Assembly (NCBI GenBank): GCA_024236095.1
Contig: JACKLD010000012.1
Coordinates: 149,695-213,694, forward strand
From: Pseudomonadaceae bacterium
GTDB taxonomy: Bacteria > Pseudomonadota > Alphaproteobacteria > UBA2136 > UBA6156
Direction of reading: 5' to 3'
DNA length: 64,000 nucleotides
Part shown: one piece after another, positions 51,001-57,000 of the stretch
How positions within the stretch are numbered: position 1 is the stretch's first letter
Layout: the number at the start of each line of letters is the position of its first letter
Made by a program: the position numbers

Positions 51001-54000
51001 CCACGGTAAAGCCGTCATTCCAGCGAAGGCTGGAACCCAGGGCAGATGACTCTCACGCAAGCTCATGTAACAAATCTTTCCACTGGGGGTTCCGTTCTTC
51101 AACAAGCCGCAACTTCCATGCACGCTGCCATGCCTTGATCTGGCTTTCACGCTGAATGGCCTGCTCAATATCTTCATGGAATTCATAGTAGACCAAAGTG
51201 TTAACCTTGTACTTGCCTGTGAACCTTGAACCGCCACCGTCCTTGTGTTCCACCACACGACGACGGATTTCATTGGTAACGCCCACATACAGCGTTCCGT
51301 TCCTTTGGCTGGCCATGATGTAAACATACCCACTCATTGCCTTTCGCTCTGGGTTCCAGCCTGCGCTGGAATGACGGTTTTGTGTCTCATCTCACTTCTC
51401 CTCCACCGTTTGCGGTTCCCAATGACTGGCGGTCACACCGCCGCCCACCTTGGGCTGGGTAAGCGTCATGCTGTCTTCAGGCTTGCGCAACACCTGCTTG
51501 GCAATGTTCTGGCGCTTCACATCGCTGCGGCGGCGGTGGGTCAGCACGATGGCGCCGACCATGGCGGTCAGCAGCACCAGACCCGCCATCTGGAATGGCA
51601 GATTGTAGTCGGTAAACAGCAATGCGCCCAAGGCGGCGGCCGAGGTATCGGCCCCCTCCCCGATGGGGTTGCCCACGCCGGAAATCGGCGCCGCATATGC
51701 CGCCAACAGCAGCTCGGCCAGCAACGCCAGCATCACCACCGCGCCCAATGGCAAATAGGCGGCCATGCCCTCGCGCAGCTTCACGAAATCAATATCAATA
51801 GTCATCAGCACGAAGAGGAACATCACTGCAATGGCACCCACATACACCATAATCAGCAGCAGCCCCAAAAACTCCGCCTGCAACAAAATGAACAGCCCCG
51901 CCGCATTCAGGAAGGTGAACACCAGCCCCAGCACCCCCACCATCGGGTTACGCGCCAGCACCACCGTGCCCGCCCCCAGAATGATGGCAGTGGCAAAGGC
52001 AAGAAAGAGGATGTCGGCTAGCATAGTTCCCTCCCCGCGTCATTCCCGCGAAAGCGGGAATCCAGCTTACCTAAACTCTGGATTCCCGCTTTCGCGGGAA
52101 TGACGCCCTTTGTTAAGATGTACCGAGCAGTCTGCGCTGGAATGACGGTTTTGTGTCTCATCTGTACCCCCCATCCTTCTTCAACCGCTCCGCCAGCGTC
52201 GGCTCCAGCCGCTCGCCGTTGGCCAGCAATTTGGCTTTGGTATAAACCAGCGTTTTGCGGTCTTCGGCGGCAAACTCCATGTTGGGGCCTTCCACAATGG
52301 CATCCACGGGGCAGGCTTCCTCGCACAAACCACAGTAAATGCACTTCACCATGTCGATGTCATACCGCGTGGTGCGGCGGCTGCCGTCGCTGCGCGGTTC
52401 GGCCTCGATGGTGATGGCCTGCGCGGGGCACACCGCCTCGCACAGCTTGCACGCAATGCACCTCTCCTCCCCGTTGGGGTAGCGCCGCAATGCGTGCTCG
52501 CCCCTGAAGCGCGGGCTAATCGGCGTCGTCTCATACGGATACATCAGCGTGTACTTTTTGCGGAACAGGTTGGCCAGCGTAATGCCGAAGCCCTGCAACA
52601 TATCCAGCAGGAGGAACTGTTTGAGGTGGCGGAGAAGGTTTTTCATCTTGTTACCCACCCCATACCATATTTCCATACATCTTCACATAAAACGCGGTGG
52701 CAACAAGCCACACAAGGCTGAGGGGCAAAAAGATTTTCCAGCCCAGCCGCATCAACTGGTCGTAGCGGTAGCGGGGCAGCGTGCCGCGCGCCCACACCAT
52801 GAAGAACAGAATCGCCACCACCTTCAGCGCAAACCAGACAACGCCCGGCACCCACGTCAACGGCACCACGCTCACAGGAGGCAACCAGCCGCCGAGAAAC
52901 AGGATGGCGGTGAAGGCACTCATGGTGATCATCGCAATGTATTCGCCCAAAAAGAACATGCCGAAGTACATGCTGGAGTACTCGACGTTGTAGCCCGCCA
53001 CCAACTCGGCTTCCGCTTCAGGAAGGTCGAACGGGTGGCGGTTGGTCTCGGCCAGGATGGACACAAGGAACATCACGAATGCCGGAAATGCGGGGATGGC
53101 AAACCACATGCCCTGTTGCGCTTCCACAATCGCCGAGAGGTTCATGCTGCCCGCCAACAACACCACCGAGAGGATGATGAGGCCGAGGCTGACCTCGTAA
53201 CTCACCATCTGCGCGCCGCTGCGCACCGCGCCCAGAAACGGGTATTTGCTGTTGCTGGCCCAGCCGGCCATCAAAATGCCGTACACCGAAAGACTGCTCA
53301 CCGCCAGCAGGTACATCACGCCCAAATTGACATCGGCCACCACCCAGCCCTTGTCCACCGGAATCACCGCCCACGCCAGCAGGCTGGGCACAAACACCAT
53401 GGCAGGTGCCAGCATGAACATCAGCTTGTTGCTGCCTTCCGGCACAAACGGCTCTTTGAAAAACAGCTTCACCGCATCGGCAATCGGTTGCAGCAGGCCA
53501 AACCAGCCCACGTACATCGGCCCGTGGCGCAGGTGCATCCAGCCCAGCACCTTGCGTTCAAACCACGTGGTGTAGGCCATGCCCAGCAGCACCGGCACCG
53601 CCACCAACAAACACGTCAACACAATCCACGCCAGCGTCAGCGTGTTGTCCCAAGTGATGAGATTGGTTGCGTAGAGGGTGAGGAGATCAAGCATCACACC
53701 CCCTCCGCCCACACGAGGCCGTCATCCCCGCGCAGGCGGGGATCCACGTTACAAACCGTGGCGTAACGCCACACCATATCAATCCAGCGTCTCATACAAA
53801 TCTTCCCATGCATCGTTGGTTTGCAAAATTAACCCCACTTTCCAAGCACGATTCCATTTCTTGATTTGCTTTTCGCGGGCAATGGCATCGCGGATATCCG
53901 CAAACTCTTCCCAATACACCAAGGTTTTCAAACCATACTTCTTGCTGAATCCCTCATAAACCCCATCACGATGTTCCTGCATCCGTTTGTGCAACGATGC

Positions 54001-57000
54001 CGTCACACCAACATACAAAATCCCATCAGGGCGGTTGGTCAAAATATAGACGTACCCACCTTTGTCCATAAGGCCTTCCTGTTTTGCCGCATCATAATGG
54101 AAGCGCTGCGCGCTGTCTCTACCGTGGGTCCCCGCCTTCGCGGGGATGACGGCCTCGTGCAGGCTGCGTGGACAACCTTCCATCACGCCGCCTCCTCTTG
54201 CACAGGCGCCACTTCCGCCTGCATCGTCTTCATCCATGCACTCTCGCGATGATGCGCGGTACGGAGGTAATAGGCCCCCACGGAAGATGCCAACGGCTTG
54301 GCGGTCAACTTACCCTTCTTGCCCACTCCCTGCCATGGCGCGGGCAAAATGGTGCCGATGGCCTCCGGCGCATAGGCTGGGCAAAACTCGGCAATCGCCG
54401 CACGCAACTGGGCCAGCGTATCGAAGGGCAGCTTGTCGCCCACCTGCTCGGAAAGGGCGCGGAATATCTTCCAGTCCTCCTTGGCGGAAAGCGGCGGCGG
54501 CACGGCGGCACGGGTGGCTTGTACCCGCCCTTCGGCATTGGCGAACAGGCCCTCTTTCTCGCTCCACGCGGCGGCGGGCAGCACCACATCGGCCATGGCG
54601 GCCAGCGGCGTAGCGTGGGTGCCGATGTACACCAGCGTGCCCCTGCCGCCCGCAAGGTCGGCAGGGGTCAGGTCGCAATCTCCATACAGGAACAACACAT
54701 CCACATGGTTCTCGCGCCAGTTTTCCAGAATCTCCGCCGTGGCCATGCCACCGTGGGCGGGGTGCACCGCCATGTCCAGCGCGGTGATGCGCCCGCAAGT
54801 ATCGTGCAACACGTTAAAGCCGTTCCAACTGTCGGTCATCGCCACCTTTTCCGCCAGTTCGCCCGCCGCACGCACAATGGCGCGGCCATCGGGGCGCGCC
54901 AGCACGGCACCGCCTACCACAATCAACGGACGCTCGGCCTTGGCCAACGCCTTGGCGGCAGCGGTTTTGCCGTCCAGCAGGGTTTCCAGCTCTTTGGCAG
55001 TATCACCCAGATGCGTGACGGGATAGGTCAAGTCCGCCACCTCGCCCACCACAAACACCGGCGCGCCTTTTTTGACGACCCGACGCAGGCGGATATTCAA
55101 CAACGGTGCCTCCAACCGGGGGTTGCAACCCACCAGCAGCACCGCATCGGCATCATCCCAACGCTTGAACGGCGTGTTGCAAATGCCCGCCGCGTGGGAT
55201 TTGCTGTCCACCAAATTGCCCGCCATGCGGCTATCCACGTTGTCACTTCCCAAGGCATCTTGCATGAAGGCGCGGAAGGCATACCCGTCTTCGGCACTGT
55301 GCAGGTTGTCCATCAGCCCCGCCAGACGGGTTTTGCGCACCCCCCTCACCGCCTCCTTGATGGCCGCAAAGGCCTCGGCCCAGCCAGTGTTTTCCAGCTT
55401 GCCCTTGCCTCGCCCTTTCCGCAGTTGCGGTGCGGTCAAACGGTTGGAGGAGAGCGCATCGGTACTAAACCGTGCGGCATCGGTCATCCATTCTTCATTG
55501 ATGGCATCACACTCGCGCGGCACGGCGCGCATCACCTTGCCTGCACGGGCATCCAGCCTTATATGCCCGCCTACCGCATCCAGCACATCAATGGTGTCAG
55601 TGCCCACCAGCTCCCACGGGCGTGCGGTGTAGGCAAACGGGCGGTTGGTCAGTGCGCCCACCGGACACAAATCAATCATGTTGCCCGCCAATTCGCTGGT
55701 CAGCGCAGATTCCACATAGGTGCCCACCTGCATGGCTTCGCCGCGGCCGGTGGCGCCCATCTCCTGCACACCGGCAATCTCGGTGGCAAAGCGGATGCAC
55801 CGCGTACAATGGATGCAGCGCGTCATCACCGTCTTGATTTTGGCGCCGATATCCTTGTCGTCTACCGCACGTTTGCCTTCATGGAAGTGGCTGCGGTCAC
55901 CGCCGTAGGCCACGCTAAGGTCTTGCAACGTGCACTCGCCGCCCTGGTCGCAAATCGGGCAATCCAGCGGGTGGTTGATGAGCAAAAACTCCATGGTGCC
56001 CTTGCGCGCGGTGGTGGCGGTCTCGCTGTCGGTCCGCACCTTCATGCCTTCAGCGGCAGGCCAGTGGCAACTGGCCACGGGTTTGGGAAAGCCCTCAATC
56101 TCCACCATGCACATGCGGCAGTTGCCCGCCACACTCAGGCGCTTGTGATAACAGAAATGCGGCACTTCCTGCTCGGCCGCCTTGCAGGCATCCATCACCG
56201 TGGCACCTTTGCGCACATGCACCAATCGCCCGTCCACATAGACGTTCAACATGCCTTCGGGAGCTGGCGGGAGGGGAGTGGTGGTCATGCCGCGTACTCT
56301 CCCATCTGCATCATTCCTGCCTCCAGAACACCCACCTGCGTCATTCCTGCGTAATGCCCCCCTCTCCGCGTCATTCCCGCACCAAGCCCCTCCACCTGCG
56401 TCATTCCAGCGAAAGCTGGAATCCAGCTTCCTTTACACAAGCTCAGACTCCAAATCCTTCCAATCTGGGTTAAGCGATTCAACAAGCTCAATCTTCCAAT
56501 CACGCTTCCAAGCCTTGATTTGGCTTTCCCGTTGAATGGCCCCCTCAATCCAATCATGCGGCTCGTAGTAAACCAACCGGTCAAGAGCATATCTGGCAAC
56601 AAAGCGGGAGCCTGTTCCCGTTTTATGCTCATGCACGCGGCGGGCAAGGTTGTTGGTGATGCCAACGTACATGGTGCCACGGTAACGGTTGGCCATGATG
56701 TAAACATAGGCGTTGTTATCCATACGGGTTTATATATGCGTTTGAAGCTGGATTCCAGCTTTCGCTGGAATGACGCAGGAGAGGCTGGCGTAAGAGGAGT
56801 GGTGGGACTTGTCATATTTTAAACATTCCTAGCACAGCATTAGACGCTCCAAGCAAGAAAAAGGCATTCGCCATCATTATTAAATTTAAGGTCGCAATGA
56901 GATAGCGAACACCCCTAGATTGGTTGTTATTAGAGAAGTATGTTTGAGACAGATAAGCAAAAACAAAAGCAAATAAAGCAGCGCCCAAACCTAAGCAAAA

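Follow-up and report, generated by a model that had tools for sequence, protein, structure and literature searches.

Three probable Ssn-family nuclease units, bracketed by inverted hairpin repeats, and their insertion into junctions of a proteobacterial nuo operon

SsnA (NMV_0044 / NMB0047) of Neisseria meningitidis is a 94-amino-acid single-domain GIY-YIG protein whose gene is flanked by copies of a hairpin repeat, and this NTS-ssnA-NTS arrangement is reported for N. meningitidis and for thousands of other bacteria (Chenal et al. 2025, Nat Commun 16:2388, PMC11893778). The Neisseria NTS, CGTCATTCCCGCGMAVGCGGGAATCYRG, is an oriented 28-nt extension of the dRS3 repeat ATTCCC-N8-GGGAAT, and repeats of this kind (NTS or SRM) have the layout CGTCAT, 8-bp stem, 4-nt loop, CCAG (PMC11893778). 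As described in that paper, SsnA binds its repeat only as single-stranded DNA (ssDNA) and makes its cut a few nucleotides upstream, leaves the reverse strand, double-stranded DNA (dsDNA) and RNA uncut, and loses its cutting activity in the Y6A, Y17A and E64A mutants; homologues from three other species behave like SsnA, each with its own specificity (PMC11893778). SsnA also lowers transformation with NTS-containing DNA about five-fold (PMC11893778). Here we analyze three units of similar design, each a small GIY-YIG gene between inverted repeats, that lie within 6 kb in the nuo operon of an uncultured proteobacterium. All coordinates refer to the window, that is, the whole 64-kb stretch of DNA that was analyzed (positions 149,695 to 213,694 of contig JACKLD010000012.1, assembly GCA_024236095.1).

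The Ssn family was delimited by blastp against CAX49033.1 (E < 1e-10, at least 75% query coverage), by cd10448 (GIY-YIG_unchar_3) as the top CDD match, and by at least one SRM within 500 bp on the 5' and 3' sides, with sequences of more than 150 residues left out of its phylogeny (PMC11893778). By the published count, 71% of ssnA homologues have at least one SRM nearby and 42% are flanked on both sides (PMC11893778). The authors call the NTS-ssnA-NTS architecture identical to that of insertion sequences and draw an analogy with RAYT genes and their REP repeats (PMC11893778). Knowledge of the dRS3/NTS hairpin repeats goes back more than 20 years. The first description of the Ssn/SRM system dates only from 2025, and in the available text of that paper the mobility of the units and the spread of hundreds of hairpins are left open. 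Our literature search found only Chenal et al. 2025 (PMC11893778) to describe GIY-YIG genes with such hairpin repeats. The first-pass annotation of this stretch had taken the combination of gene and repeats to be undescribed, a view superseded by that paper, which defined Ssn, the flanking NTS/SRM repeats and the insertion-sequence-like layout.

Three GIY-YIG genes between oriented hairpin repeats

The three genes, here called G1 to G3, are as follows.

51053 to 51337, minus strand: ssn gene G1, 94 amino acids, single-domain GIY-YIG, nuoJ/nuoK junction (PF01541, E = 2.1e-17)
53779 to 54069, minus strand: ssn gene G2, 96 amino acids, nuoG/nuoH junction (PF01541, E = 8.9e-16)
56433 to 56723, minus strand: ssn gene G3, 96 amino acids, between orf124/nuoF and nuoG (PF01541, E = 1.3e-13)

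All three are intact open reading frames (ORFs), each is the sole ORF of its unit, and all lie on the minus strand, co-oriented with the nuo genes as the first-pass annotation had stated. PF01541, covering residues 3-78, is the only significant Pfam domain, and the proteins end directly after this catalytic domain. Pairwise identities are 63% for G1 and G3, 49% for G1 and G2 and 45% for G2 and G3, so that the earlier by-eye figure of about 50% was a fair one. Residues Y6, Y17 and E64 (G1 numbering), which are the positions mutated in N. meningitidis SsnA, are invariant among the three proteins, and R27 and H31 are likewise invariant. A profile search returned 7921 homologues of G1-G3 at E <= 1e-10; among the matches listed, these are about 95-125 amino acids long and contain PF01541 only, with one showing an additional T5orf172 match. 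A tblastn search across the window found no GIY-YIG gene besides G1-G3, and neither the window nor a set of 5.8 billion clustered proteins contains near-identical copies of them. Searches of NCBIfam and the PDB gave no family-level name and no NCBIfam equivalog. Specifically, the intron-endonuclease model TIGR01453 has a cut-off of 56 bits and gives 19-23 bits here, with a match spanning only about 30 N-terminal residues, and the nearest solved structures are the UPF0213 proteins BH0048 (1zg2) and EF2693 (1ywl), which are distant (E = 1.7e-4 and 5.6e-3). These weak matches are consistent with a distinct small-GIY-YIG subfamily, at least as judged by sequence. UPF0213/YhbQ-type proteins are, like G1-G3, stand-alone GIY-YIG proteins of about 100 amino acids but have only a distant sequence relation to them.

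Each gene lies within an inverted repeat. That of unit 1 pairs 51008-51043 with 51346-51381 (36 nt, 92% complementary), that of unit 2 pairs 53700-53756 with 54115-54171 (57 nt, 82%), and that of unit 3 pairs 56395-56430 with 56744-56779 (36 nt, 100%). ORF, Pfam and inverted-repeat analyses thus confirm the three repeat-bracketed GIY-YIG units that the first-pass annotation had placed, at accurate coordinates, in nuo spacers. Its terminal repeats of 28-32 bp are indeed present but measure 36-57 nt, and those of unit 3 are perfect over 36 nt rather than 30. The palindrome consensus it proposed describes unit 3 well, whereas unit 1 has one imperfect arm (GGAAC) and unit 2 has a different stem, ATCCCCGC...GCGGGGAT, that fits the ATTCC consensus loosely. 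Four copies of the strict palindrome ATTCC-N10-GGAAT are present in the window, where 0.02 would be expected, and these are both arms of unit 3 and the two arms of a gene-less doublet at 52042-52101 that is described below.

Scanning the window with the published SRM motif (HGTCWY N0-2 YYVSBRH N0-5 WNVSBRG N0-2 RNCYNB; Chenal et al. 2025) gave 11 matches, compared to 0.34 +/- 0.53 in 100 dinucleotide shuffles (maximum 2). Six of the 11 are the arms of the three units, with each gene having one SRM within 55 bp on each side.

51349 to 51376, minus strand: upstream SRM/NTS hairpin of unit 1, CGTCATTCCAGCGCAGGCTGGAACCCAG, forward on the coding strand with its CGTCAT box outward (SRM motif, inverted-repeat arm, hairpin of -7.2 kcal/mol)
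51013 to 51040, plus strand: downstream SRM hairpin of unit 1, reverse on the coding strand with its CGTCAT box outward (SRM motif, inverted repeat, fold)
54124 to 54151, minus strand: upstream SRM of unit 2, CGTCATCCCCGCGAAGGCGGGGACCCAC (SRM motif, arm of the 57-nt inverted repeat, hairpin of -12 kcal/mol)
53720 to 53747, plus strand: downstream SRM of unit 2 (SRM motif, inverted repeat, fold)
56748 to 56775, minus strand: upstream SRM of unit 3, CGTCATTCCAGCGAAAGCTGGAATCCAG (SRM motif, within the perfect 36-nt inverted repeat)
56399 to 56426, plus strand: downstream SRM of unit 3 (SRM motif, inverted repeat, fold)

When folded as ssDNA the repeats form stems of 7-8 bp and loops of 4 nt, with energies of -7.2 to -12 kcal/mol (z of about -3). 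Conservation of this fold is evident in a set of 54 distinct 28-nt SRMs collected from 80 metagenomic loci as well as from the window and its relatives, in which 96.1% of stem cells pair versus 84.9% in shuffles and compensatory changes are found in four of the eight stem pairs (for example T-A to C-G or G-C and, elsewhere, C-G to A-T), a level of covariation matched by 0 of 500 shuffles. The stem is TTCCAGC in the G1 and G3 units and TCCCCGC in the G2 unit, and the two arms of one gene have the same stem type in 11 of 16 genes.

The arms are also uniformly oriented. In all three units the left arm is a plus-strand match and the right arm a minus-strand match, with the CGTCAT box facing outward on both sides; on the coding strand this gives a forward arm upstream of the gene and a reverse arm downstream of it. 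Since the characterized enzymes cut 5' of the forward motif only, outward CGTCAT boxes predict one cut per strand, and by analogy these cuts would fall at the outer edges of the unit, on opposite strands, near the inverted-repeat ends. Note that the perfect inverted repeat of unit 3 begins 4 nt outside CGTCAT, which is about at the cut position of the Neisseria enzyme. In a survey of 75 genes (68 from a metagenome scan plus seven from the window and its relatives), the 200 nt on either side of each gene were compared and a significant inverted repeat joined the two flanks in 60 of them, where the upstream arm typically begins (T/C)GTCA(T/C). By the stricter published motif the commonest two-sided layout is forward upstream and reverse downstream. 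Homologues P0006 and P0010 have short C-terminal tails, such as ...SLSRE or ...PLSRG, which may reflect translation into a downstream repeat that may itself supply the stop (the TGA of ...GGAATGACG).

With a size of 94-96 amino acids, Y6, Y17 and E64 in place, an SRM on both sides within 500 bp and an oriented ssDNA hairpin, the three elements are likely to be Ssn-family units, in which an SsnA-type gene sits between inverted SRM/NTS repeats. They resemble the N. meningitidis system as published in the single GIY-YIG domain of about 94 amino acids, the same catalytic positions, an oriented 28-nt hairpin on both sides, an insertion-sequence-like repeat-gene-repeat layout and gene-less repeat copies clustered around particular genes. 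They differ in that three diverged paralogues share 6 kb of one essential operon in an uncultured proteobacterium, that the units have stem variants of their own and are known here from sequence alone, and that the window and its relatives provide an empty site and 16-87 bp duplications, features not reported in the available text of PMC11893778. As a catalogue item the window is ordinary, adding more members to a very large known family. What it does offer is three co-resident nuclease/repeat pairs with two stem types, which are convenient for tests of cognate specificity, and ssDNA-cutting Ssn enzymes are of biotechnological interest.

Insertion footprints and turnover in the nuo spacers

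The units have a GC content of 46-50% in an operon of about 60%. In the nearest NuoJ relatives within the 5.8-billion-protein collection (loci L049, L050 and L053, 72-77% identical) the nuoJ/nuoK junction is compact and empty of an ssn unit. Specifically, the empty junction of L049 reads ...CCG GTG GAG GAG AAG TAA TC ATG, and directly before nuoK the window reads ACC GTG GAG GAG AAG TAG CC ATG, which is a relic nuoJ end. The live nuoJ end, 386 bp upstream of the relic, reads ACG GTG GAG GAG AAG T followed by GA. Comparable pairs of live and relic sequences flank the other two units.

51394 to 51409, minus strand: unit 1 target duplication, live copy, the nuoJ 3' end (TVEEK), with its TGA stop completed by the first two bases of the insert
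50992 to 51007, minus strand: unit 1 target duplication, relic copy, ACCGTGGAGGAGAAGT then AG CC ATG (nuoK), the relic nuoJ end TVEEK plus stop
54181 to 54207, minus strand: unit 2 probable target duplication, upstream copy, the nuoG 3' end and a relic TGATG start
53692 to 53719, minus strand: unit 2 probable target duplication, downstream copy, the live nuoH ribosome-binding site and ATG
56784 to 56815, minus strand: unit 3 target duplication, relic copy, a relic start of nuoG, ATGACAAGTCCCACCACTCCTCTTACGCCAGC (MTSPTTPLTPA), its ATG overlapping the stop of orf124
56263 to 56288, minus strand: unit 3 target duplication, live copy, the first 26 nt of nuoG (MTTTPLPPA)

The unit 1 copies are identical at 15 of 16 positions, a score reached by 0 of 500 shuffles, and the relic matches the empty junctions of L049 (CCGGTGGAGGAGAAGTAA TC ATG) and L050. 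The unit 2 copies agree at 21 of 28 positions with one gap (13/15 in the core, p of about 0.01), making this flanking repeat a probable target duplication. For unit 3 a 22-nt core is 19/22 identical between the relic and 56263-56284, with ATGA common to both copies and a 6-nt indel. The best explanation of these sequences is that insertion of each unit duplicated 16 to about 30 bp of its target, which would have rebuilt the interrupted gene end or start and kept the operon functional. Similar duplications flank units at other loci, namely 87 bp (75/87) of the nuoF 3' end in the relative L056, 68 bp (64/68) of a gene's C-terminal coding region at a metagenomic locus (L065) and 31 bp (30/31) of the start of a downstream gene in L115.

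Occupancy of the nuo spacers also varies among relatives. An ssn gene is present in the nuoF-G interval of the window, L054, L003 and L056 and absent from that of L055, L001, L002 and L007; it is present in the nuoG/H junction of the window, L055 and L003 and absent from that of L054 and L056; and in the nuoJ/K junction it is found, among the relatives compared, in the window only. In L054, the closest relative, the first ORF of the nuoF-G interval is an ssn gene with both arms. The G/H copy of L055 is nearest to the F-G copy of the window (68%) versus 52% to the G/H copy of the window. Relatives thus carry different Ssn lineages in the same nuo spacers and Ssn similarity does not follow spacer position, for which reason we rejected the simple story of one ancient insertion per spacer. 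As read from these sequences, insertion polymorphism and lineage swapping point to turnover rather than stasis.

The empty site in relatives, the flanking duplications, the low GC content and the lineages that do not follow spacer position together make past insertion well supported, such that the units would represent insertions of foreign, lower-GC DNA in tight nuo junctions. The comparison of nuo operons that the first-pass annotation had called for thus yielded both the missing J/K unit (in L049, L050 and L053) and target duplications, and its picture of mobile units stands as far as compact, GIY-YIG-only insertions are concerned. What is new here is modest, namely explicit evidence for insertion and turnover, which the available text of Chenal et al. 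2025 raises only as a hypothesis. With filled and empty sites, boundaries and duplications provided by the window and its relatives, the mobility question becomes testable.

The inserted genes may be expressed with their host operon. No terminator-like sites are found at the repeats, and the count of promoter-like sites (8 versus 4.2 +/- 2.3 expected) shows no clear enrichment, which indicates that the ssn genes are probably read within the nuo transcript. With no T-tract terminators and no clear promoter enrichment, a role of the repeats as terminators or promoters is unsupported. A relic ATG overlapping the nuoG stop at 54183 (minus strand) is in frame with G2, and translational coupling to nuoG could yield an N-terminally extended G2 (+38 amino acids) besides the product from its own AGGAAGG ribosome-binding site. 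GC skew on the plus strand is negative in every 4-kb bin of the window (-0.08 to -0.26) irrespective of gene orientation, which by the usual rule places the window within one replichore with the minus strand, and hence nuo and ssn, on the leading strand.

How the units may have spread

By analogy with the characterized enzymes, an Ssn protein would bind its own repeat only when the DNA is single-stranded and a hairpin with an 8-bp stem and 4-nt loop is extruded, and would read the oriented CGTCAT box to cut a few nucleotides 5' of it. If G1-G3 act this way on their own arms, the cuts would coincide with the unit edges and the units could spread via host replication or repair started from the Ssn nicks. 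Such spread would have to rely on host replication or repair because a hydrolytic enzyme with one cleavable arm per strand provides no self-made excision or joining, and the duplications of 16-87 bp argue for a host-repair route over a transposase-defined stagger. Our guess is that spreading occurs by nuclease-initiated, host-repair-mediated copying rather than by classical transposase chemistry; any mechanism must account for the long variable duplications together with cuts at the outer arm edges on opposite strands. A bolder reading makes the units autonomous mobile elements that belong to a new mechanistic class. In such elements the GIY-YIG nuclease would recognize the element's own ssDNA hairpins and nick both strands, each at its 5' edge of the element; replication or repair by the host would copy the unit to new sites with long variable duplications (16-87 bp), and solo and doublet repeats, including the Neisseria dRS3/NTS, would be non-autonomous progeny. 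We hold this bolder reading only tentatively and think it somewhat unlikely.

Several observations limit the reading of the three elements as inserted Ssn-family units. The Ssn assignment rests on size, catalytic residues and flanking motif rather than on direct comparison with N. meningitidis SsnA (CAX49033.1) or cd10448, and the nuclease activity and cut position of G1-G3 are extrapolated from the characterized enzymes. Inverted repeats are lacking at 15 of the 75 surveyed homologues, and L003 has one ssn copy with both SRMs in direct orientation and another with a downstream hairpin only. In a set of 24 genes, stem type is only weakly linked to protein similarity (59.9% versus 57.5% identity, 83/2000 permutations). 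A flanking duplication is significant in six of 60 units surveyed, with four of these being clearly host sequence and two being extra repeat copies, and we do not claim it as a universal feature. When recent mobility was sought as the same protein in differing contexts, the marine homologue P0032 was found in one conserved neighborhood in 23 contigs. With that homologue static and the paralogues old (45-63% identical), present mobility is not established.

A more conventional alternative is an autonomous insertion sequence in which the GIY-YIG protein is the transposase, the inverted repeats are the ends and the gene-less doublet is a miniature non-autonomous derivative. The terminal inverted repeats (36-57 nt, 82-100% complementary), the empty site with target duplications, the doublet arms identical to those of the L054 unit, the coincidence of predicted Ssn cuts with unit edges and the occupation of the same spacers by differing lineages would all be expected of such an element. 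However, to our knowledge no strand transfer or covalent intermediate is known for GIY-YIG nucleases, which are hydrolytic, and with one cleavable repeat per strand the enzyme alone would be unable to excise a strand. The only ORF of each unit encodes this protein and no transposase of the DDE, HUH, serine or tyrosine type. A given transposase normally makes a target duplication of fixed length, whereas those seen here are 16, about 28 and about 26-32 bp, with 31, 68 and 87 bp at other loci. Added to the lack of near-identical copies in the window or the clustered proteins and to the one homologue static in its 23 contigs, this makes an insertion sequence unlikely, and the idea of the GIY-YIG protein as a transposase in its own right is unsupported, as nothing here shows strand transfer, the duplications span 16-87 bp and near-identical copies are missing from these sequences. 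Variable-length target duplications do accompany insertions of Penelope-like retroelements, which have a GIY-YIG endonuclease domain; these are eukaryotic, reverse-transcriptase dependent and far larger, and the window units have no reverse transcriptase. The repeats could instead have spread first as REP-like elements, with ssn genes entering repeats or doublets later by recombination that used the repeats as homology. Solo SRMs and the doublet do exist without genes, the closest relative has solo SRMs in its I/J, K/L and cutA/M junctions, and the doublet arms match the L054 unit arms exactly. Yet L049, L050 and L053 have no repeat in their empty nuoJ/K junctions, and neither the asymmetric 17-nt outer extension of unit 1 nor its 16-bp non-repeat duplication is expected from repeat recombination; we consider this order of events distinctly unlikely, and for unit 1 at least the empty site argues against the earlier suggestion of homing into pre-existing palindromes. 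Nor do the units look like GIY-YIG homing endonucleases such as I-TevI or the phage T4 Seg proteins, with which they share the GIY-YIG domain and a selfish-looking gene between or in conserved genes. G1-G3 lack a DNA-binding extension (94-96 versus about 215-250 amino acids), score far below the TIGR01453 cut-off and sit between terminal inverted repeats, and the Ssn target would be its own ssDNA hairpin rather than an empty dsDNA allele.

Two further accounts dispense with mobility. In the first, Ssn would have been domesticated by the host and its units would no longer move. As in N. meningitidis, it would serve to restrict ssDNA, so that incoming or exposed strands recombine less at repeat-marked loci, and the nuo location would be incidental. 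The five-fold effect of SsnA on transformation with NTS-containing DNA (PMC11893778) fits this account, as do ORFs and catalytic residues that are intact despite 45-63% identity among copies and the homologue that keeps a fixed context in 23 contigs; the absence of terminators at the repeats and of clear promoter enrichment, being compatible with nuo co-transcription, fits it as well. It is set against insertion polymorphism and lineage swapping, which show turnover, and it accounts for maintenance but not for origin. We regard a static host role as quite possible, short of probable, and it is compatible with the preferred reading of inserted Ssn units rather than exclusive of it. In the second, adjacency is coincidental and the palindromes are generic REP-like transcript-stabilizing or terminator hairpins beside nuclease genes, as might be thought from hairpins that also stand alone in gene junctions and would fold in mRNA too. 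This account was already disfavored and is highly improbable, given that six of the 11 motif matches in 64 kb bracket the only three GIY-YIG genes, that inverted repeats starting GTCAT flank 60 of 75 homologues, which come from unrelated metagenomes, that no T-tract terminators occur at the repeats, and that the published survey puts the share of homologues with one or more flanking repeats at 71% and the share with repeats on both sides at 42% (PMC11893778).

Gene-less repeats and other inserts in the operon

Repeats of the same family also occur in the window without a gene.

52037 to 52106, no strand assigned: gene-less back-to-back SRM doublet at the nuoI/nuoJ junction, 29-nt arms with a 12-nt spacer (inverted repeat, 100% complementary)
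52128 to 52163, minus strand: truncated copy of the unit 1 upstream end, 36 nt, 97% identical, comprising a 16-nt outer extension and half an SRM
46267 to 46294, minus strand: solo SRM at the nuoM 3' end, upstream of a GNAT-like ORF, homologous to the unit 1 upstream arm including its inner flank
33964 to 33991, plus strand: solo SRM of the unit 2 stem type (SRM motif, repeat family)
36867 to 36894, plus strand: solo SRM of the unit 2 stem type (SRM motif, repeat family)
56305 to 56394, plus strand: three 30-nt units in an array that adjoins the unit 3 downstream arm, with the outer half of an SRM (YCYGCRTCATTCCNGC) at the start of each (TRF period 30)

The two SRM matches of the doublet (52038-52065 on the plus strand and 52078-52105 on the minus strand) fold together at -40.3 kcal/mol (z = -13.4). 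The doublet has exactly the arm sequence that the ssn unit of L054 has, its arms equal the N. meningitidis NTS consensus, and the match at 52038-52065 is the identical one by position. In L050 and L053 the nuoI/nuoJ junction is compact with an overlapping ATGA. The truncated copy of unit 1 abuts the nuoI stop as the full copy abuts the nuoJ stop. In L054, solo SRMs occupy the I/J, K/L and cutA/M junctions, and the contigs of L049 and L054 (Logan, short-read, sample SRR30202056) start or end inside SRM repeats. Because assemblers break at high-copy repeats, this suggests many SRM copies in the genome of the closest relative. Evidently the repeats are numerous and variably placed in this clade, and they form the REP/REPIN-like side of the system. 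By analogy with the REP/REPIN repeats of RAYT genes, the solo repeats and the doublet are probably derivatives or targets of the same Ssn system.

This analogy has limits. As with the RAYT proteins, which are domesticated IS200/IS605-type HUH transposases, a single small gene sits between inverted hairpin repeats, the enzyme would work on ssDNA hairpins, and the repeats occur also as singlets (33964, 36867, 46267) and as an inverted doublet (52037-52106). In contrast, the Pfam assignment of G1-G3 is to a hydrolytic GIY-YIG enzyme, for which no covalent intermediate is expected, and not to an HUH Y1 transposase, and we know of no long target duplications made by REP/REPIN insertion. The likeness to the Neisseria dRS3 repeats and neisserial intergenic mosaic elements (NIMEs) lies in the ATTCCC-N8-GGGAAT core, found at 52042-52061 and 52082-52101 with a one-pair variant in unit 3, and in arrays of repeat pieces in intergenic DNA (56305-56430 in the window). 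Here, however, the organism is another, the repeats are in operon junctions rather than around surface-protein genes, and the window carries no trace of filamentous phage integration, which has been described for dRS3.

Several other tandem and direct repeats occur in the window. The array units at 56305-56394 (...CGTCATTCC...) are without the second stem half, and may be repeated partial copies. At 46320-46383, a perfect 30-nt tandem duplication (2.1 copies) with the highest TRF score in the window lies at the nuoM 3' end, 25 nt before the solo SRM, and the NuoM frame continues through it; this could be the footprint of a lost unit or the outcome of hairpin-promoted slippage. Direct repeats 33800-33946 / 35395-35541 (147 nt, 89%) and 34005-34059 / 35528-35582 (55 nt, 91%) bracket a gene at 34088-35332 and hold the hairpin variant GTCATCCCGTTGACGAACGGGATCCACG and a short TCGAACA-type tandem repeat.

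The operon has other additional genes as well. A lipoprotein-like ORF of 172 amino acids lies between nuoL and nuoK (50150-50668; 33-36% GC versus about 60% in the host), and a membrane-like ORF of 124 amino acids lies between nuoF and unit 3 (56812-57186; 39-41% GC). Neither has a Pfam match, and both AT-rich ORFs look horizontally acquired. In addition, cutA (47844-48173) separates nuoM from nuoL and a GNAT-like ORF (about 45750-46246) separates nuoM from nuoN. The nuo spacers of relatives L001, L002, L004-L007, L054 and L056 (0.4-1.2 kb) contain changing, unrelated genes for a NUDIX hydrolase, an alpha/beta hydrolase, SDR, GNAT, DUF805, ExoD and MazG-like proteins and Cys-rich lipoproteins, and nuo junctions in this lineage seem generally permissive to insertion. 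The proposal of the first-pass annotation that the units target a highly expressed operon finds no support here. The spacers are reminiscent of the Paracoccus nqo cluster, which has extra reading frames. The nearest nuo relatives are labelled as Alphaproteobacteria or Proteobacteria metagenome-assembled genomes and the nuo operon has extra ORFs in the alphaproteobacterial style; the Pseudomonadaceae label of the record is probably unreliable.

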